A stretch of 64,000 bases of DNA from Ostreococcus lucimarinus. Taxonomy: Eukaryota. Numbering within the stretch: the first letter of the stretch is position 1; every line of letters starts with the position of its first letter. The position numbers and the translations under genes were made by a program. Of this stretch, positions 1,124 to 12,868 are shown piece after piece. A model generated the notes under the pieces. It saw only the letters and a list, made by a program, of their open reading frames with translations. It ran no database searches and was not told where the DNA came from. The stretch is taken from assembly GCA_000092065.1 (NCBI GenBank), contig CP000593.1. The stretch is one strand, 5' to 3'.

Positions 1124-4100
1124 TTACATGTACTTTTTGGTCTTGCTCGTCGCGGCGGCGGACTCGGGATCGTCGGGCCAGAAGTGCTTGGGATATCGAC
1201 CGGCGAGCTCTTTGCGAACGTCCGTGCGATAGGCGTTGCGCCAGAACGACGCCAAGTCGCGCGTGACGGCTTGCGTGCGACCGGCCGGGCTGAGGAGGTG
1301 TAATTCGCAGTTGACGCCGCCCACGCGTGGAGTTTCGGTAGTGCCGAAGAACTCTTGGATGCGCGCGGCGACGACGGGAACGTCGCCGTCGTAGTCGACT
1401 TTGGCGTTGGATCCGCTGGGCAGGCGAACGGCGACGGGACAGGCGTCGTCCACGAGCTTGAGATGGTCGTACGTGCAGAAATGCGCCTTGACTAGGGATG
1501 CGACGTCAACTTTCGCGAGATCCGATTTAGACTGCGCGCCAGCGATCCACGGCGCGAGCCATTCACCGGCGGAGCTCAGCAAATTTTCTTCGGAGAGATT
1601 TGGAAACGTGGCGTCCACGCCTGAGCGATGGACATATTCCGCGCGCTTGAGCCACGATGTCGTCGCTTTGTTCAAACCGAAGGCGCTCGCGAGACCCATC
1701 TCGCGAATACCGTCTAACATCGCGCTCACAGTCGCCTCGGGATTGTCTTTCACCGAAAACGGAATCTCTCGAAGCACCAAAGATCCTACCGTCAAGCGCC
1801 TGCGCGCGAAGACTGATTTCGATGCGCTCGCCCAGAACACGTCGTCACTCTCCTTGGACAACGCTTCGTACAGCGCACCACCGCTTTCTAAGCATGCACG
1901 GTCGATCGGTGCCGCCAACCGCACGCGGTCGTTCCTCGATCCCGCGTTTCCCGCGCCATCGCCAGCTAATTCGACGACGACTAAAGTTTCATTCGCCTTG
2001 TCGCCAGAGCGAAGCAGCGCGTCATCCTTGTGCTCACTTCCCACGCTCGCGGCGCCGCCGCCAGAGAGTTGAAACGCCCCTCCTCGGTTTTTACGCGCGG
2101 CGACGCGATCAGGATAGGCGACAGCGAGCAGTAGGCCGGCTTCGCTTTCGCCCGCGCCGCACAAGAACGACCACACCACCGCCGAGGCGTCGCCCTCGCC
2201 GACACCCGGAGCGCAGAAGTCAGGATGCGAAGACGCTAAGCGGCGCAAGTTCCCGAGTAACTGCTCGGCAACTTGTTTCGCTTCGCGAACCGCCCGCTCG
2301 TCGACATTCCAGCTCGCACCGCTCGCGCCGCCCGTCGCGACGCTCACCGCCGCGTTTACGCTCGCGCGTTTGCCGCGAGGCGCGCCTTTGATTTTCTTCC
2401 CGCTCTTCGGGAGTTTGGTACCGATTGGAACGCGCGTCGGTTTCGTCGGGTCGACTTCTGGTTTCTCTTCATCCAAATCGCCCGCGCTTGCGAGTGGATC
2501 TTGACCCCAAAGCGCGCGAAGTCTACACCGAACGTCGAGAGGGGCGTCGCGTCCAGAGATCAAGTCGCGGTCGCCGATGACAGCTGCGAGTTGACACGCG
2601 AGTCGAGCGCTCTCAGCGCCGCGTGACGCGCCAAAAAGTAACATACGCGCCAGTCTTGGGTGCACTGGAAGCTCGGACATGATCGAACCCACGTCGCTAG
2701 GGACGAGTTTGCCTTCCTCCAACGCGCCGAGCTCGCGTAACAACCGTCTCGCCGCGATGAGCGGGCCTTCAGGCGGTGGGTCGAGCCAAGCCATGTCTGC
2801 CCCATCGCCGACGCCCCACGCTGCTAAATCTAACGCCACCGGAGTCAAGTCGGCTTGCAAAATCTCGGGTGTCGTGTCTGGCTGAAGTTTCGCGTTCGAG
2901 GCCTCGCTCCATAAACGATAGCACGTCCCAGGAGCGATGCGCCCGGCTCGCCCGCGCCTTTGATCCGCCGATGCGCGGGAGACACGAGTCGTCTCCAGTC
3001 GCGTCATACCCTTCCGAGCGTCGAACTTGGGCGTCTTGCACAATCCCGAGTCCACGACCACTTTCACGCCGTTGATGGTCAACGAAGACTCGGCGATTGG
3101 AGTGCTCACGACGACGCGACGCGTGCCCGGTTTCGACGGCGCGAGCGCCGCCGCCTGTTCTTCTTGCGATAGCGCGCCGTACAGTGGCAACGCCACGACA
3201 CCGTTCGGAAGCTCCCTTTGCAGATCTCGCACCACGCGATTGATCTCCGCCGCGCCCGGAAGAAAACACAGCACGTCGCCATCTGGGCACGCGCGCACGG
3301 CGTCCTTCACCGCGTTCGTCGTCGCGCGCTCGAGCTCACCCCATCCCGCGCCCGGCGCGCCCAAATAAATCGTCTCCACCGGATACGACCGCCCCTCCGA
3401 CACGATCACCGGCACCTCGGGCCCGTTCTCATCCCTCAACAACGCCGCCACGCGCGCGCCCATCTCCCCGAGCGTCGCGCTCATCACCAACAGTCTCAAA
3501 TCTGGCCGTATCGTCTGTTGCACCTCTCGACACAGCGCCAGCGCGACGTCCGCGTCTAAATTCCTCTCGTGAAACTCATCGAACACCACCAATCCCACGT
3601 CCCGCAGCTCTGGATCGTTTCTCAACCGCCGCGTCAGCACGCCCTCCGTCACCACCTCCACCCGCGTCGCCGCGCTCGCCCTTCGTTCAAATCGCACCTG
3701 ATACCCCACCGTTTCCCCCGCGCGTTCCCCCAACATCTCAGCCATCCGCATCGCCGCCGCTTTCGCCGCTAACCGTCGCGGTTCGAGCACGATCACTTTC
3801 CCCGCGCGTCCGTCGCCGCCGGCGCTCGCCGCCGCCAGCGCCGCCGCCAGCGGCATCACCGTCGTCTTCCCCGCCCCCGGCGGCGCCTGCATCACCGCGC
3901 GCGTCGCGCGCTGTTCGCATCGAACCCAATCGTTCGCCTCGTCAGTCCCGCGTCGCGCTTTCGCGCGCCGTCGACGCACCTCGAGCGCGTCCAAGCACGC
4001 GTCCACGACCGCGTCGATGGGCAACTTCGCGCGCGCTTTTCGCAGCGCCTCGCGCCGCGCGTCGTCTCCCGTCGCGCGCCGCGCGACGTCGCGACGCGCA

Positions 4101-4177
4101 CCGCGCGCGCGCCGCGCGACCGGCGCGCGCGCGTCCGTCGTCGCGACGCGCGTCGCCATGTTGTGTCGTCGTCGCAC
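1124..4177 (-). CDS. ATP-dependent DEAH-box RNA helicase, bacterial HrpB type
   Basis: Walker A APPGAGKTT, then VLEPRRLAA, DEFHER, SAT (LVMSATL), QRRGRAGR. The C-terminal 350 aa run collinear with the E. coli HrpB C-terminal domain (AYPDRVA...RDLASFWRNAYRTDVRKELAGRYPKHFWPDDP...TSKTKKY, versus E. coli GRYPKHVWPDDP...TRRTKKY). The start is M1 or M7 (4159). Confidence 0.85.
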   Translation of the reverse strand: MRRRHNMATRVATTDARAPVARRARGARRDVARRATGDDARREALRKARAKLPIDAVVDACLDALEVRRRRAKARRGTDEANDWVRCEQRATRAVMQAPPGAGKTTVMPLAAALAAASAGGDGRAGKVIVLEPRRLAAKAAAMRMAEMLGERAGETVGYQVRFERRASAATRVEVVTEGVLTRRLRNDPELRDVGLVVFDEFHERNLDADVALALCREVQQTIRPDLRLLVMSATLGEMGARVAALLRDENGPEVPVIVSEGRSYPVETIYLGAPGAGWGELERATTNAVKDAVRACPDGDVLCFLPGAAEINRVVRDLQRELPNGVVALPLYGALSQEEQAAALAPSKPGTRRVVVSTPIAESSLTINGVKVVVDSGLCKTPKFDARKGMTRLETTRVSRASADQRRGRAGRIAPGTCYRLWSEASNAKLQPDTTPEILQADLTPVALDLAAWGVGDGADMAWLDPPPEGPLIAARRLLRELGALEEGKLVPSDVGSIMSELPVHPRLARMLLFGASRGAESARLACQLAAVIGDRDLISGRDAPLDVRCRLRALWGQDPLASAGDLDEEKPEVDPTKPTRVPIGTKLPKSGKKIKGAPRGKRASVNAAVSVATGGASGASWNVDERAVREAKQVAEQLLGNLRRLASSHPDFCAPGVGEGDASAVVWSFLCGAGESEAGLLLAVAYPDRVAARKNRGGAFQLSGGGAASVGSEHKDDALLRSGDKANETLVVVELAGDGAGNAGSRNDRVRLAAPIDRACLESGGALYEALSKESDDVFWASASKSVFARRRLTVGSLVLREIPFSVKDNPEATVSAMLDGIREMGLASAFGLNKATTSWLKRAEYVHRSGVDATFPNLSEENLLSSAGEWLAPWIAGAQSKSDLAKVDVASLVKAHFCTYDHLKLVDDACPVAVRLPSGSNAKVDYDGDVPVVAARIQEFFGTTETPRVGGVNCELHLLSPAGRTQAVTRDLASFWRNAYRTDVRKELAGRYPKHFWPDDPESAAATSKTKKYM

Positions 4178-4197
4178 TGCGCGACGCGACGACCGCC

Positions 4198-4370
4198 ATG
4201 CCGCGCGAGGTCACGCGCGTCGGCGCGTACGCGCTCAAGCACGCGCTCGGGAGAGGGGCGTTCGGGTGGGTGAAGCTCGCGGTGCAGGACGAGACGGGCG
4301 CCAAGGCGGCGATCAAGGTGCGTCGACGCGCGCGGATGGATGGATGGATGCGTCGACGAAACGAAAAGAA

Positions 4371-4407
<37 letters not shown>

Positions 4408-5773
4408 ACGCGCGCGACGCGCCATCGCGACCTCGACCGAATCGCCGAAACCGACGACTGACGGGAATCGACGACGCGCGACGCGAATCGAAACGTAGAT
4501 TTTGGACAGGGAGAATTTGCAACGCCTGGACGAGCAGGACCAGGTGAAGGCGGAGGTGAAGGCGATGGCGGATCTCACGCATCCGTGCATCGTCGACCTG
4601 AAAGAGGTGCTGAGCGATGAACAGAGCGTGTTCATGGTGATGCAGTACTGCCCGGGGGGGGAGGTGTACGATAGGGTGCGAGCGAAGGGGAGTTTCGGCG
4701 AGGCGGAGGCGAGACGACATTTTCAGAGGTTGATACAGGGGGTGGATTTTTGTCATAAGAAACGGATATATCATCGGGATTTGAAACCTGAGAATTTGTT
4801 CTTCGATGAGCGCGGGGAATTGTGCATCGGGGACTTTGGGTTGGCGGCGCTGCGGGCGGACGCGGAGGATACTAATCTTCGCACGATTTGCGGGACGCCG
4901 CACTTCGCGGCGCCGGAGGTGATGGGAGGATCGAGGAGGCTCGTGGGGAATAAGAATTTTAAGACGGTGAACACGAAGACGCGCTCTGATGGATACGATG
5001 GTGGACCCGCGGACGTGTGGAGTTGTGGATGTATCTTGTATTTTATGCTCACGGCGAAGTACCCGTTCGACGGAAAGAATTTCGTGCAACTGCAACTCAT
5101 GGTTCAAAAGACGGAGCCGTATTTCCCGAGCGGTTCGATGTCGCGCTCGTGCGAAAAACTCATCAAAGGCATGCTTGTGAAAGATCCGACGAAGAGAATG
5201 ACGCTCGATCAAGTGATGAAGAACAGTTGGTTCAAGGTTGACTTTGTTCCCGTCAAGGTTGAGCACAACGCCAACACGAATCGGTTCTTCGACGAAGAAG
5301 ACCCGACGCTCGCGCAGTTTATGACGCCGGACGACAAGCTCGTGGTGAAGAAATCATCCATGATGAGCACAAATGAGTCGAAACTTCGCCCGATCAAACA
5401 GCTCAACGCGTTCGAGTTGATCAATATCGCCGCTTTTGATGTGGCAAACATCTTCGACGAGGATGAAAACACGGTGAGCAACGCCACGCGCTTCGTGAGT
5501 AAAGTAGAGATTGATCGCGTGCAAGCCGCCATCATCGAACGGGCCACCGCGCTTGGGAGTGTCGCTCATCGACAGACGCAAGCGCGCGTGGTTTTTGAAT
5601 GTCAAAGCACGGGGCAAGTGGTGACGATGCGAACGTATCAAGTCATCCCAGGCGTGTGCGTGTACGACTTCAGTCGAGACGAAGGCGGTCGCGAACATTT
5701 TCACACTTGGTTCGCAAATCTTCGCGATGAAAATCACGAAGTGGGTAAACTCATACTTAGCGAAGCAGATTAG
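4198..5773 (+). CDS. CBL-interacting (CIPK/SnRK3-type) Ser/Thr protein kinase, two exons: join(4198..4317, 4499..5773), intron 4318..4498
   Basis: Exon 1 carries the glycine loop LGRGAFGWV and the VAIK-type lysine (AAIK). Donor is AAG|GTGCGT and acceptor is aacgtag|ATT, both phase 0, giving ...AAIK|ILDRENLQRLDEQDQVKAEVKAMADLTHPCIV. Exon 2 has HRDLKPENLF, DFGLAA, GTPHFAAPE and a C-terminal NAF/FISL motif (IKQLNAFELINIAAFDVANIFDE). The intron contains an (ACG)n microsatellite. Confidence 0.8.
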
Positions 5774-6820: not shown

Positions 6821-9124
6821 TCAACAGCATCGCTTGCGGTCGAGCGCAGCCTGGGCCTGAGCTTTCTTCTTCGCATCAGCGTCTTGTCTCGCGCGCTCGC
6901 GGGCGAGCAACTCGTCGAGCGACGTCGTCGGGTCGTGCGCGGGACGCTGGGCGCGGTCGTCGCCCGCGCCGTTTTGTTGCGTCCACATCGCGTGGTACTT
7001 GGCCCCGCGTCGGAGGAGTTGATCGTGCGAACCGTATTCGACAACCTTGCCATCCTCTAAAACGGCGATGTTGTCGCAATTTCGCGCCGTGGAAAGCCTG
7101 TGCGCGACGACGATGGTGGTTTTGCCCTTCATCAACACTTCGAGCATTTTAAGAATATCTTTCTCGGTGTTCGTGTCCAGAGCGCTCGTGGCTTCGTCCA
7201 TCAAAACCAAAGGCGAACCCTTGAGCAACGCGCGCGCGATGGCGACGCGTTGCTTTTCCCCGCCGCTAAGTTTTAATCCGCGCTCACCGACGATGGTGTC
7301 GTACGCCTTGGGCATGCGGAGAATGGGACCGTCGATGGCGGCGAGACGCGCCGCTTCGCGAACCTCGGCATCCGACGCGCTCATTTTACCGTAATGAATA
7401 TTGTAATGGATCGTGTCGTTGAACAACACCGTATCTTGGGGAACCACAGCCACGGATTCGCGCAAAGAGCGCAAAGAGACGCTTTGCGCGTTTTGACCGC
7501 CGAGAAAGATGCCCGAAGTTTCGCCGTCGCCATTCTTTTGGGCGTCGTACAGCCTAAACAACAGGCGCAAGAGCGTGCTCTTTCCGCTCCCACTCGCGCC
7601 GACCAACGCGAGAGAACCACCCGCGGGAACAGTCACGGAGAGTCCATCTATAATTTTTCTCCCGTTGTCGTATCCAAAACTCACGTTTCTAAACTCCACC
7701 GAAAGCCCCTCGTCCGGGACGACGAGCGCGGGCGCGTTTTCCAGCTCTCGCACCGCGCTCTTCTCTTCCAACAAATGAAACATCGACGTCATGTCGATCA
7801 AAGACTGTCGCGCTTCGCGATACACCGACCCCAAAAAGTTCAGCGGCACCGATAGTTGGAATAGCAACCCTTGCACCATGACCAAATCCCCTACGGTGAG
7901 GTTTCCCTGCGCGACGCCTTGCGCGGCGAGGAGCATCGCCGCGGAGAGGGACGCCGAAAAAATGGCGTTTTGTCCAAAGTTCAACATCCCTAGCGAGCTG
8001 GCGATTTTCAAATTCGCCTGTTCGACGCCCTTTAAGCTCTCGTCGTAGCGTTTCACCTCGTGTTCCTCGTTGTTGAAGTACTTGACTGTCTCAAAGTTTA
8101 ACAAGGAATCGATCGCCCTCGTGTTGCCTTCGTTTTCCAGCGCGTTCATCTGACGCCTAAACTTTGTTCTCCACTGCGTGCACGCGATCGTGAACGCGGT
8201 GTACGTCGCGATCGTACCTCCGGTTAACATCGCAAACTCTGGTCCGCACTTTACGGATAAAATACCGCTCACGAGGGCGATTTCAAACGCCGTCGGGAAC
8301 ACGTTGAACACCATGCTATTCAACAGGAAACTAATGCCTCGCGTCCCGCGATCGATCGTGCGATTCAACGCCCCCGTCTGCCGATCGAGATGATACTTCA
8401 AATCAAGTTCGTGCAAATGCGCGAACACCCTCCGCGCGATCGCTCGTATCGCCCCCTGACTCACCTTGGCGAACGTCGCGTTTCTCAGTTCGTTCGCCAG
8501 GCTCGCCGACGCTCGCAGCGCCCCGTACCCGACCAACATCACCGCCGGCGTCGCCGCGATCGCCGTCATCGGCAGGTGCGTCATCGCCTCCACCCCACTC
8601 GTCGCCATCCCGGCCTGCGCGCTCAGCCCATCGATCGCGTACTTGAACGCGAACGGCACGCTCACGTTCGCCGCCTTGCTCGCCGCGAGCAGCGCCATCG
8701 CGCCCGCCACCCGTCGCTTCCCCGCCGGGTTCTCGTCGCTCCACAGGTACCCACCCATCGTTCGCAGTATTCCGAAATCGATGTCATCCGCGCTCGTCGC
8801 CGCCGTCGTCGTCGTCGCCGCCGTCGTCGGCGTCGCCGCCGTCGTCTCGCGCTTCGTCGTCGCCGCCGCGCGTCCGTCCTCCGTCCTCGCGTCGTCTCCC
8901 GCGCGCGCGCTCGTCGACGCGCGCGCGCTCGACCGCGCGCGCGCGCCCGCATCGCTCGCGAACGCCCGCGCGCGCGCGACGCGCGTCTCCCGCGCGCGCG
9001 CGCGCTCGACCGCGCGCGCCGTCGTCGCGACCGGCGCGCGTCCCCATCCCTCGCGCGCGCCGGCGCCTCGCGCGATCGCGCGCGCGACCGCGCGCGCGCG
9101 CGACCGCGCGACCGACGTCGCCAT
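6821..9124 (-). CDS. ABC transporter, B-family half transporter of the mitochondrial ATM1/ABCB7 type (TMD-NBD)
   Basis: There are six predicted TM helices. The NBD has [11 protein letters not shown] (Walker A), [16 protein letters not shown] (signature) and [12 protein letters not shown] (Walker B). The N-terminal 150 aa are R/A-rich and presequence-like ([13 protein letters not shown]...). The listed ORF runs up to 10153 as an R/S/P-rich low-complexity artefact. The chosen start is the ATG at 9122-9124. Confidence 0.8.
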
Positions 9125-9201
9125 GCCGCGCGCGTCGGCGCGGGCGAGCGCGCGACGACGCGCGCGCGTCACAATCGCGCGCGGATTCGAAATCGAATCC
9201 A

Positions 9202-10086
9202 ATGTCGGAGCGACGCGCGGCGAAGCGCGCGCGCGACGACGCGTCGACGGCCGACGACGACGACGACGGCGCGTGTGGACTGTGCGCGCGCGCGCTCGCG
9301 ACGGCGCGCGGCGACGGCGCCGACGACGGCGCGCGCGCGACGCTGCCGGGAACGCCGGTGCGCGCGAAAGCGCGACGGCGGTTTCGGTCGACGACGACGC
9401 CGGAGGCGGGACGAATCTGCGGCGCGTGCTACCAGCGAGAGTACCGCGCGAGGTGCCGCGCGCGGGCGAGCGCGGCGCGGACGTGCGCGCGGTGCGGGGA
9501 GGGAAACGCGTCGGGACGGTGGGCGAGGAGTCACGCGCCGCCGACGAAGGGAGAGACGGTGTGCCCGAAATGCTACGAGAGCGAACGCCGGGCGCGAACG
9601 GTGGCGACGGGAGGGCGAGGGGACGGTGAGCGGTGCGCGCGGTGCGAGAAGATCGGGCCGGGGAGCGAGAAGACGTACTGGTACAGGGCGGAGTTCGGCG
9701 AGCGGCGGGGAAAGCGCGTGTGCCAGGCGTGCCACAAGTTGGATTATCGCGAGAGGCTGAACGCGGATCCGAGCGTGTTTTGCCGTGGGTGCGAGAAGAC
9801 GGCGCTGGTGACGAATTATTGGCGGAGAATCGTCGGCGAGAACGGCGCGACGGCGGGGCACTGGTGCGACGCGTGTTACAAGAAGGACCGTCTGCGACGC
9901 ATGAACGCGGATCCGAGCGTGACGTGCGCGACGTGCGAGGCGACGACGAGCGGTGGACCGGAGTGGCGGCGCAAGGGTGACGGGTACGTCTGTCGCACGT
10001 GCGTGAGCAAGGAGCGCACGCGCGCGAACCGCCGCGCTCGCGGAGAAGCGAACCGAGACGGAAATCGAGAAGGAGACGCCGCGTAG
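9202..10086 (+). CDS. Zinc-finger protein with four tandem GATA-type (C-x2-C-x17-25-C-x2-C) fingers
   Basis: The four units are [95 protein letters not shown] and [26 protein letters not shown]. The last is closest to the GATA consensus (C-x2-C-x-T-x-T-x-W-R-R-x-G-x3-C-x2-C). Cys codons are disfavoured in GC-rich sequence, so the periodicity is unlikely to be random. The gene is wedged between the ABC start (9124, opposite strand) and the RNase II start (10118). Confidence 0.45.
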
Positions 10087-10117
10087 AGACGACGCGCACG
10101 AATGGACGAATGGAAAG

Positions 10118-12868
10118 ATGCACGAGCGATACGAATCGCGCGTCGTAGAACACACCGCCGCTCTTCGCGAGCAGAAAGCCCTCGCGAAGTTCCTAGCGCT
10201 TTTTAGTCACGTAGCCGTCAACTTTCGAGCGACGACGACTCAACCTCACAGCGCGACGCCGGTCGCGTCATGCCACCGCGCGCGCGCGCGATCCCTCACC
10301 CTAAAACCGAATCCGATCCGTTTGATCTCGCCGACGTCGCGAGCGCGCTCCAGGTGCGCGCGCGAGCGCTCGTTTTCTCAAGCTCAACTGTCCGCGCAAC
10401 GACCCGACTCGACGACTGACGACGAAACGACGGCGACTCGCGCGCAGGATGACGCGCGCGCGCACGTCGGTGAGTTCGTGGTGAACGAGTTCAAGCGGCA
10501 CGAAGCGTACGTGCGCGTGGAAGGGCTGCCGCTGGACGTCAAGTGCGAGGGCTGGGAGCGTCAGGGCAGAAGCGTGCACGGCGACCGCGTGCGAGTGGTA
10601 ATCGACGCGTGCGATCGCTGGGAGCGCGTCGTGGGGACTAAAGGCGAGATTTCAGACGAAGAGAGAGCGTTCGTAAGCGTAGAGGCGCTCGCATCGGTGT
10701 GTCGACGAGGGTGGCGACCGACGGGACGCGTCGTCCCGGATGCGCCGGTGACGCCGGCGACGCGGCGCTCGAGGATGGTCGGGAGGGTAGAAGTCCAAGA
10801 CGGCGGCGCGTCGCTCACATTCGTGCCCTTGGATCCAAAGTTGCCGAAGGGCCGCGTTTCTGAGTTTAGCGTGCCGAAGTCGTTACAGAAGACGCTGGCG
10901 TCGGGGGCGGAGGATGTCGAGGACGTCTTCGTGGCGGTGCGACTTAGAAAGTGGAGCAAAGGGATGTCGATGCCGATGATGGACATCATCGAGGTCGTGG
11001 GAAAAGGAAGTATGGGTGATGATTTAGATTTCATGACGAAAGTCATCGTCGCCGAGCACGGCATAGAGAGCGGAGATTTTAGCGCGGATGCGACGGCGTG
11101 TTTACCAAAGGTCAAAGTCGGCGATCACTGGAAAATTCCACCCGAGGAGATGAAACGGCGGGTGAATTTTAGGGAAAAGCTCGTTTTTAGCATAGACCCA
11201 CCGACGGCGCGAGATTTGGACGATGCGCTGAGCGTCCAAGTTTTGCCCGATGGTTGTCTAAACGTCGGCGTGCACATCGCCGACGTGTCACACTTCGTCA
11301 AGCCTGACACGCCGCTCGACGCCGAGGCGAGAGAACGAGGCACCACGACGTATCTCGTGCACACCATTTTTCCAATGTTGCCTAGACTTTTGTGCGAAAA
11401 TCTGTGCTCACTCAATCCTGGCGTTGAAAGATTAACGTTTTCGGTGGAATGGAAGATGACGCGTGGTGGCGTTGTGAAGAATGTCTCGTTCAAGCGTGGC
11501 GTGATAAAGAGCGCTGCGAAGCTGTCATACATTCACGTTCAAAATGTGATCGATGCTGGGTCGGACGTGAACAAAGCGAAAGAGGCACTAGATGATGTGA
11601 AGTTTTCAGGCGCGTACACCGCTGAAGACGTCATCGAGAGCATTTCAATCTTGAACGCAGCTGCGAAAGCGATGCGCAAGAAGAGATTTGAAGCCGGCGC
11701 TGTTCGATTGGATCAACCAAAGGTTGGTTTTGAGCTTAACGATGACTACGAGCCCGTGGGAGCTGCACCTTACGTCATTCGCGACAGCAATCGTCTTGTC
11801 GAGGAGTACATGCTACTCGCCAATATGTACGTCGCCGAGTTCATAGCCGAGATTTTCCCATCGCACGCCATGCTTCGATGCCATCCGCCGCCGAACGAAC
11901 GGAAGCTCATGGAGCTATCCACGTTCGCCAGCGAGCACGATATCGATATCGACATATCATCTTCGAAACGTCTTCACGACAGTTTGCGAGCAATAGCGCG
12001 CGACTCGCAAGATTTGTTTGACATCGTGCAGCTGCTCGCTACAAAGCCCATGCAACTGGCGAAATACTTTTGTACGGGGAGCGTGGACGAAGAGCAATGG
12101 CGGCATTACGCTCTCGCCGTTCCTTATTACACGCACTTTACGTCGCCTATTCGTCGATATCCGGATATCATTGTGCATCGTCTACTCGCAGCGGCGCTCG
12201 AGCACGCTGAGAGACAAGGGAAATCCAGTGAGCGAGACGTCGTAGAGAAACACAGTCTCATGACGCCGGAAATCTGTAGCGACGTCGCTGATCACTGCAA
12301 CGAGCGGAAACTCGCGGCGAAGTACGCCCAAGAGCGGAGTCAGCACTTGTTTCTCTGCAAATATCTGCAGAAAAATCCGGTCATCGCGCGTGCGATTGTA
12401 AGGCAACTCGGGCAGCAATACGTCGTCGCCTATCTCCCGGCGTTTGGATTCGAAATCAAAATTTACCTCGAAAAGCAGCGTCACGTGAAAGTCACACAAA
12501 AGGGATTTTCAAAGGGTCAATCATTGACGAAAGAATTAGACGTGACGTTAGACGTCCGTAAAGAGTGCGAAGAGGCCGCGAAAATCGCCGCTGCGGGTGC
12601 CGCCGCACTCGAGATTTTAGATCGATCGACGTACAAGAGCACGCTCAAGCACGCCAGAGGTTTGCGCGGGCGATGCCTCAATACTACGGAAGAGCAAGAG
12701 ACGTTCATAGATGATGCGGTCATGGACGACGCGCTGGTTTTACCTACTTCGATCAAGGCGCTGGATAAGATGCCTGTGATTTTATGCGTGCACAAAGAGT
12801 CGACAATTAAGTTTGAGATTTACGGCCACGTCCTCTTCTCAAATCCATTTTACACAGCTTTCGCTTAG
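10118..12868 (+). CDS. RNase II/RNB-family 3'-5' exoribonuclease, DIS3L2/SOV-like (no PIN domain)
   Basis: Cold-shock domains ([16 protein letters not shown]...[10 protein letters not shown]). The RNB catalytic motif [20 protein letters not shown]-terminal S1-like domain. No N-terminal PIN domain, so DIS3L2-type rather than Rrp44. Confidence 0.8.

Follow-up and report, generated by a model that had tools for sequence, protein, structure and literature searches.

We report that a 64,000-nucleotide stretch of the Ostreococcus lucimarinus genome (GenBank assembly GCA_000092065.1, contig CP000593.1; hereafter the window) carries, at 9202..10086 on the plus strand, a gene for a 294-residue protein with five four-cysteine (Cys4) zinc-finger units that appear to be derived from the GATA-type finger. 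Taken as a whole, the best explanation of our observations is a real gene whose five Cys4 GATA-derived units form a nuclear nucleic-acid binder, and we place the probability of this complete reading at roughly 0.55. That the interval is a genuine protein-coding gene encoding GATA-derived zinc fingers we hold with high confidence; in support of a gene, the cysteine ladder and the synteny are kept in orthologues and the fingers appear to be under purifying selection. This five-finger gene is conserved in Ostreococcus-like marine picoalgae, and what might be taken for a 1-kb "spacer" between an ABC-transporter gene and an RNB exoribonuclease gene is coding.

The open reading frame (ORF) listed in the original prediction, which was made from the letters of the window alone, is present as a single-exon coding sequence (CDS) of 294 residues plus stop; its ATG at 9202 is the earliest possible start, and the reading frame is open from 8647. 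Of the 21 cysteines in the protein 20 make up ten CxxC motifs, a number never reached in 100,000 amino-acid shufflings (mean 1.4, maximum 8), and the other five frames over the interval hold 0 or 1 CxxC each. The GC context, previously given as 65%, needs correcting: the ORF has ~72% GC (64/66/84% at the first, second and third codon positions, GC1/2/3), the region 9001-10000 has 74%, and the whole window, in which genes are densely packed, has 62%.

A homology search returned seven relatives, to which an exhaustive profile search added more. At E<=1e-10 the family comprises only 7 clusters among 1.84 billion representatives and appears to be restricted to Ostreococcus-like lineages. Identities to the window protein in the alignment are 98%, 78%, 78%, 51%, 43% and 50%; the O. 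tauri orthologue, at 50% identity, is XP_003082557.2 (CEG00060.1, A0A096P7D1), lies on chromosome 13 (CAID01000013.2) at about 141.7-142.6 kb and is labelled "unnamed product", while the cluster at 98% identity has 52 members from JGI, ENA and Tara marine metagenomes, on contigs of up to 531 kb. The exact protein is absent from a 15-billion-sequence collection, where its relatives are labelled only "hypothetical" or "unnamed product". It had been proposed that the cysteine ladder be sought in related genomes, and there it is kept: 18 of the ligand cysteines are invariant in the 7 aligned sequences, the remaining two are retained in every full-length orthologue, and all 20 of 20 thus persist in orthologues down to 50% identity. 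The 21st cysteine, C85, shows no conservation.

Ratios of non-synonymous to synonymous substitution rates (dN/dS), estimated by the Nei-Gojobori method for the finger region (residues 63-272) and the N-terminus (residues 1-62), were 0.43 and 0.99, respectively, between the window and the 78%-identical lineage L002, and 0.47 and 0.92 between the window and O. tauri; these estimates are crude, given strong codon bias and a synonymous rate (dS) near saturation at the O. tauri distance. They indicate that the finger region is under purifying selection and the N-terminus is not.

These data bear directly on the notion that there is no gene here at all, the ORF being a by-product of a GC-rich leader or promoter between two genes, an alternative that the original prediction had itself raised in the form of a misread leader. 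Such a reading could appeal to the several long overlapping ORFs in other frames, to the codon-aligned antisense frame, which is likewise open in all orthologues (without conserved features), and to a comparison with L003, a marine metagenome contig 99.7% identical to the window over 8.8 kb. Between positions 4001-4882 of that contig and 9202-10083 there are 5 non-synonymous and 0 synonymous differences, two of them in residues 1-62, two in residues 63-272 and one in the C-terminal tail; the counts are too small to interpret, yet purifying selection would not usually produce such a pattern. Against a by-product, the cysteine ladder is kept at 50% identity and in one of the six frames only, dN/dS lies below 0.5 across the fingers and near 1 in the N-terminus, the GC3 of 84% is typical for coding sequence here and similar to that of the neighbouring genes, and the GATA profile matches described below are specific. 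With cysteine-ladder conservation, synteny and apparent purifying selection on the fingers all countering it, we consider the misread-leader alternative effectively refuted by the conservation data, and give it next to no weight.

The overlapping ORFs themselves lie at 8390-9760 and 8466-9629 on the plus strand and at 8662-8952, 9169-10155 and 6821-10153 on the minus strand. They cross a CGCGCG-rich region (8700-9200) that codes for the Ala/Arg-rich N-terminus of the ABC transporter, their translations are of Arg/Ala low complexity, and they look like by-products of GC-richness, not genes. Two of them were considered and rejected as accounts of the interval: the antisense ORF 9169..10155, since the conserved cysteine ladder is in the plus frame only, and an N-terminal extension of the ABC transporter (6821..10153, minus strand), since ABC orthologues of 767-782 residues fit a start at 9124.

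The ten CxxC motifs pair into five C-x2-C...C-x2-C units, one more than the four originally counted; unit 1, which has a long and poorly conserved insert, had been overlooked. The even spacing claimed for the four does hold for units 2-5, whose first cysteines follow one another at steps of 50, 49 and 48 residues. In each unit a C-x2-C knuckle precedes a predicted beta-hairpin, which carries an invariant Trp (in unit 1, Phe), and a further C-x2-C from which a predicted alpha-helix begins; the helix pattern specific to the family is C-x2-C-[YH]-x2-[DE]-[YR]-R-x-R-[LM]-N. All coordinates that follow are on the plus strand. Unit 1 (residues 25-76, 9274..9429) reads C-x2-C, an x44 loop and C-x2-C-YQREYR, and is an expanded, degenerate finger whose similarity to the remaining units is confined to its C-terminal half (hhalign 70%; hidden Markov model (HMM) positions 26-46). 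Unit 2 (residues 95-124, 9484..9573) is C-x2-C-x22-C-x2-C with W107, and unit 3 (residues 145-177, 9634..9732) is C-x2-C-x25-C-x2-C and contains W-Y-R, after which come a predicted helix and the linker LNADPSV. Unit 4 (residues 194-225, 9781..9876), C-x2-C-x24-C-x2-C with W-R-R and C-D-A-C, is of GATA type, its loop being x19 in O. tauri as against x24 in the window; unit 5 (residues 242-267, 9925..10002), C-x2-C-x18-C-x2-C with P-E-W-R-R, is the most GATA-like of all. Comparison by hhalign demonstrates mutual repeat homology among the last four, at 96.6% for units 2 and 3, 96.5% for units 3 and 4 and 94.6% for units 5 and 4.

An invariant N-x-D-P-x-V connects unit 3 to unit 4 and unit 4 to unit 5. 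The first linker, LNADPSVF (residues 186-193, 9757..9780), has N187, D189, P190 and V192 invariant in the orthologues, and the second, MNADPSVT (residues 234-241, 9901..9924), has M234, N235, D237 and P238 invariant. Beyond unit 5 lies a basic C-terminal tail (residues 268-294, 10003..10083) with six Lys or Arg in 27 residues and a helix predicted over residues 265-292. At the other end, the N-terminal region (residues 1-62) is poorly conserved and modelled with low confidence; it contains a basic cluster, RRAAKRAR (residues 4-11, 9211..9234), a possible nuclear localisation signal, and the orthologues carry a basic cluster at the N-terminus too. A six-frame scan of the window with an HMM of the unit found no further copies.

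The kinship with GATA fingers is carried chiefly by profile comparisons. A profile of units 2-5 built from the orthologues and searched against all PDB chain sequences returned GATA proteins for all of its top 15 matches (GATA3 at 4e-11 and GATA1 at 1.6e-9, then GATA4, GATA2 and AreA), and the first non-GATA match came only at E=0.57. The "GATA-like" label of the original prediction is borne out by this result, and the outcome that would have spoken against that label, matches to unrelated zinc-ribbon folds only, did not occur. Taken singly, unit 5 matched GATA3 at E=3e-5, with its top six matches all GATA, and unit 4 gave 12 GATA matches out of 12, the best again GATA3 (E=9.4e-5), in an alignment extending into the helix opposite the segment CNACGLYYKLHNIN. 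Units 3, 2 and 1 alone returned no GATA match from PDB. When aligned by hhalign to six vertebrate GATA segments extracted from the PDB search output, unit 5 scored 96%, unit 4 91%, unit 3 49% and unit 2 20%, so a test of each unit on its own favours GATA for units 5 and 4 in both PDB and hhalign searches but does not detect it for units 3, 2 and 1, which are tied to GATA only through internal repeat homology; nor did any unit of the window reach the Pfam GATA profile, PF00320. Among isolated orthologous units, GATA was the most frequent Pfam family (6/25, best E=3.8e-5), below the gathering cut-off. Judged by their sequences, the fingers are divergent derivatives of the GATA-type finger, and the divergence from canonical GATA rises from the C-terminal toward the N-terminal unit.

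Several observations weigh against the reading of the protein as a GATA-derived nucleic-acid binder and should be set out together. Pfam applied to the whole protein gave no GATA match at E<=10, only noise (cytochrome c7, NMD3); unit 5 alone, at 15.3 bits (E=0.016), missed the PF00320 gathering cut-off of 26.8 bits, and the other units of the window had no Pfam GATA match individually. Only unit 5, with x18, has the canonical loop of 17-20 residues, those of units 1-4 being x44, x22, x25 and x24. The signature T-x-L-W-R-R / C-N-A-C-G-L is found in no unit: units 4 and 5 keep W-R-R, unit 3 reads W-Y-R and unit 2 W-A-R; Y, E, Y and R stand where the preceding Leu would be, and C-N-A-C-G is replaced by C-D-A-C-Y, C-R-T-C-V, C-Q-A-C-H, C-P-K-C-Y and C-G-A-C-Y. 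In complexes of GATA1 and GATA3 with DNA, base contacts are made by the residues of C-N-A-C-G-L and by the Leu that precedes W-R-R. Canonical GATA fingers also place a basic tail in the minor groove, and here such a tail follows unit 5 only, the internal fingers having none. Finally, a dN/dS of ~0.45 is rather relaxed for a core regulator.

Structure prediction suggests a fold but little beyond it. An AlphaFold2 model from the 7-sequence alignment had a predicted local distance difference test score (pLDDT) of 72 for the whole protein and of 87 for units 4-5 modelled alone, with values below 50 at residues 1-21 and in the unit-1 loop (residues 34-58), and low confidence also at 137-141. The modelled units are strand-strand-helix, a short hairpin followed by a helix that starts at the second CxxC. 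Foldseek placed LIM-only proteins such as LMO2 at the top (E=8e-4 or worse; template-modelling (TM) scores of 0.16-0.3), and its GATA matches had the highest sequence identity, 24-33%. The model supports a treble-clef fold and nothing more specific.

Set beside class IV GATA factors (GATA1/2/3/4, AreA), which provide the only significant PDB sequence matches of the Ostreococcus fingers, the protein has in common with them the four-Cys unit, the invariant Trp, which in units 4 and 5 precedes Arg-Arg, the x18 spacing of unit 5, a second C-x-A-C that opens the helix and, in unit 4, the conserved Leu and Asn after the helix. It differs in falling below the Pfam cut-off, in the loops of 22-44 residues of units 1-4 and in the replacement of C-N-A-C-G-L; moreover, these factors have one or two fingers ~29 residues apart, whereas here five are joined by short NADPSV linkers. 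In the nomenclature of a survey of plant GATA factors the x18 loop is that of type IVb (plant/fungal), and non-standard spacings, "type IVe" (x16-21), are enriched in chlorophytes (PMC11608367). The same survey, of 5,335 plant GATA factors, recorded 1-5 domains per protein, with four in 6 proteins and five in 2 (PMC11608367), so a GATA protein with four fingers, regarded as atypical in the original prediction, is indeed unusual, but is not unprecedented. Multi-domain plant GATA factors (e.g., OsGATA24-26) likewise combine several GATA-type fingers in one Viridiplantae protein, but they are found by the standard GATA models, which the Ostreococcus protein fails. The O. tauri accessions are absent from four supplementary files of the survey (PMC11608367), a full-text literature search found no mention of them, and a search for tandem GATA-like fingers in green algae gave nothing relevant. 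The number of fingers therefore does not by itself set the protein apart, and its architecture departs only modestly from a known theme; what is distinctive is that standard models miss the domain, together with the expanded loops, the rewritten recognition surface, the conserved linkers and the apparent lineage restriction.

More distant relatives were found in Chlorella vulgaris (KAI3428734.1, P0020), Elasticomyces elasticus (KAK4891455.1, P0014) and metagenomes (P0015-P0019 and P0023). Like the Ostreococcus protein they have arrays of 4-9 similar C-x2-C...W...C-x2-C-Y units; they differ from it in length and in extra domains, and they match the Ostreococcus family at only E=6e-9 to 1e-3. 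P0016 (E=6.5e-8 to the family profile) and P0020 (2.5e-5), with 3-4 fingers each, score 36 and 40 bits against Pfam GATA, above its cut-off. P0014 (802 residues) has at least 8 near-identical units at its N-terminus, and in P0015 (765 residues, metagenomic) some five units with N-x-D-P linkers follow a region that matches HNH below threshold (E=0.023). The linker N-x-D-P-x-V-x-C is present in P0015 and P0019, with a degenerate form, LNADTTMIC, in P0023. A nuclease fusion (GIY-YIG/HNH) in P0023 and P0015 was considered and set aside, as the N-terminus of P0023 has no PDB or Pfam match and the HNH match of P0015 is the one just given. An additional homology search with the unit profile was uninformative (15 candidates and one trivial 61-residue fragment).

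Two further sequences came up in these searches. P0007, from an ENA contig of 1,518 bp, is a 299-residue protein in which an unrelated N-terminal region (PF23609) precedes the last ~65 residues of the finger protein; its unit 5 plus tail is exactly that of P0001, the 98% relative, with one tail residue different from the window, and it is probably an assembly or gene-call chimera. A phage-like sequence (L009, IMGVR_UViG_3300028388_002840) encodes at 2848-3165 a 105-residue protein whose single Cys4 unit includes 'GHWCDACY' and shares 40% identity with unit 4 across 51 residues; this was the only viral match, and we judged it an isolated weak similarity and not a relative of the array.

With regard to function, we propose that a GATA-type (class IV, treble-clef) finger was duplicated internally to give the five units, and that the protein would be nuclear and bind nucleic acid, most probably DNA. 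Successive fingers may contact successive short sub-sites, by analogy with GATA3, in which each of the two fingers reads 5'-GAT-3' and both can occupy consecutive major grooves (PMC7434886). The target would presumably not be WGATAR, because the GATA-reading residues (the Leu ahead of W-R-R, Asn-Ala in C-N-A-C, and the G-L after it) are replaced. Nucleic-acid binding is favoured by the isoelectric point (pI) of 9.6 and a net charge of about +24 (63 Lys and Arg against 39 Asp and Glu), by the basic N-terminal cluster and C-terminal tail, and by the conserved linkers. For this functional portion of our reading, a nuclear nucleic-acid-binding protein whose fingers sit on a succession of short sub-sites and recognize something other than WGATAR, we regard the odds as about even. 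It is tempting to go further and to speculate that this protein founds a 'polydactyl GATA' class, in which re-engineered fingers held by the N-A-D-P-S-V linker, which would be analogous to the TGEKP linker of C2H2 arrays, recognize a DNA site of ~12-15 bp. This bolder version we consider doubtful; if true, it would describe a genus-restricted regulator in a picoalga with a very small transcription-factor repertoire.

The main rival holds that the fingers do not read nucleic acid, and form instead a scaffold for protein-protein interaction or oligomerisation, in the manner of ZAD, LIM, the zinc-binding domain of ClpX (ClpX-ZBD) or the FOG-binding face of the GATA N-finger. The Foldseek ranking headed by LMO2, the presence of ZAD, ClpX and LIM among the structural neighbours, the loss of the canonical GATA base-contacting residues and the long helices after each second knuckle would all fit such a role, although the sequence-level matches are exclusively to GATA DNA-binding fingers and the strongly basic composition fits a polyanion ligand. 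LIM domains follow the pattern C-x2-C-x16-23-H-x2-C-x2-C-x2-C-x16-21-C-x2-(C/H/D), a contiguous double finger with His ligands; the Ostreococcus units have no His ligands and are separated by helices of 16-20 residues plus linkers, and Pfam gave no LIM (PF00412) match. Nor did Pfam match zf-AD (PF07776), the ZAD being a single N-terminal dimerisation domain before a C2H2 array, to which the protein has no similarity, and no sequence or Pfam similarity to the ClpX zinc-binding domain was found. We rate the scaffold as unlikely, while granting that it is the alternative with the greatest claim to attention.

Two other proposals draw on the neighbouring genes. Alternatively, then, the protein might be an RNA-binding zinc finger tied to the adjacent DIS3L2-like 3'-5' exoribonuclease, e.g. 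as a substrate adaptor: it is basic, and its gene is directly upstream of the RNB gene on the same strand in every lineage examined. That adjacency says little, given that synteny among these compact genomes extends over at least seven genes, and Pfam and PDB searches revealed no similarity to known RNA-binding zinc fingers, leaving the proposal improbable. More improbable still is an iron-binding, rubredoxin-like or redox Cys4 protein, perhaps connected with the divergent mitochondrial-type ABC transporter. Paired CxxC knuckles are able to ligate Fe, the gene has a 77-bp divergent promoter region in common with the ABC half-transporter, and Pfam noise included weak matches to multihaem cytochrome families; those matches are far below threshold (E >=0.3), the W-R-R signature and the specific GATA profile matches indicate structural zinc sites, and a targeting peptide is not evident. 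We retain the GATA-derived nucleic-acid binder as the preferred reading.

The finger gene stands in a conserved block consisting of a kinase, an unknown gene, the ABC gene (minus strand), the finger gene (plus), the RNB gene (plus) and a S-adenosylmethionine (SAM) decarboxylase gene (minus), in an order shared by O. tauri and three further lineages for which flanking DNA was available (metagenomic Ostreococcus-like contigs). In all five lineages with readable flanks, the finger gene has these ABC-transporter and RNB-exonuclease genes as its neighbours. Where the retrieved locus extends far enough, a DEAD-box helicase gene is found upstream of the kinase. The ABC gene has ~80% nucleotide identity to Ostreococcus tauri chromosome 13, with gene order conserved. 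The syntenic loci are all of 56-62% GC, and the Bathycoccus genome is about 48% GC; because of this we take the loci to be Ostreococcus-like rather than Bathycoccus.

The divergent neighbour (6821..9124, minus strand) encodes an ABC half-transporter with Pfam ABC_membrane and ABC_tran domains, 767 residues from the ATG at 9124; its O. tauri orthologue is equally 767 residues long, same-position orthologues have 767-782, and in L006 a prokaryote-style gene call makes it longer, at 858. The distance of 77 bp to this start given by the original prediction is confirmed, the intergenic region being 9125..9201. In other lineages the orthologous gap is 273-385 bp, which implies either an unusually compact bidirectional promoter in the window or a misplaced start codon in one of the two genes. 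Ending 2 nt before the ATG of the finger gene is a perfect inverted repeat, GGATTCG-AAAT-CGAATCC (9183-9200; 7-bp arms, 4-nt spacer), of which L002 has only a part (GGATTCAAAATCGA) and which is not recognisable in O. tauri.

On the other side, the RNB / DIS3L2-like exoribonuclease ORF (10118..12868, plus strand; Pfam RNB 1.4e-100) has homologues that carry the name DIS3-like exonuclease 2. Its first ATG, at 10118, is 31 bp past the finger-gene stop, so the 31-bp gap put forward earlier is literally correct, but it is probably not the true intergenic distance. That ATG is replaced by ATA in the closely related L002, the exonuclease homologues have 790-830 residues and span only ~86% of the 916-residue RNB ORF, and in O. 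tauri the annotated exonuclease start is 148 bp past the finger-gene stop, in a gene whose span implies an intron. The true 5' end of the exonuclease is probably downstream of 10118, possibly with a short first exon involved.

The genome of Ostreococcus, a minimal model eukaryote, measures ~13 Mb and encodes few transcription factors. In such an organism a five-finger GATA-derived protein missed by the standard models would be absent from Pfam-based transcription-factor catalogues, and the O. tauri orthologue offers a cheap experimental target. The gene also shows how GATA-type fingers can duplicate and diverge into arrays.

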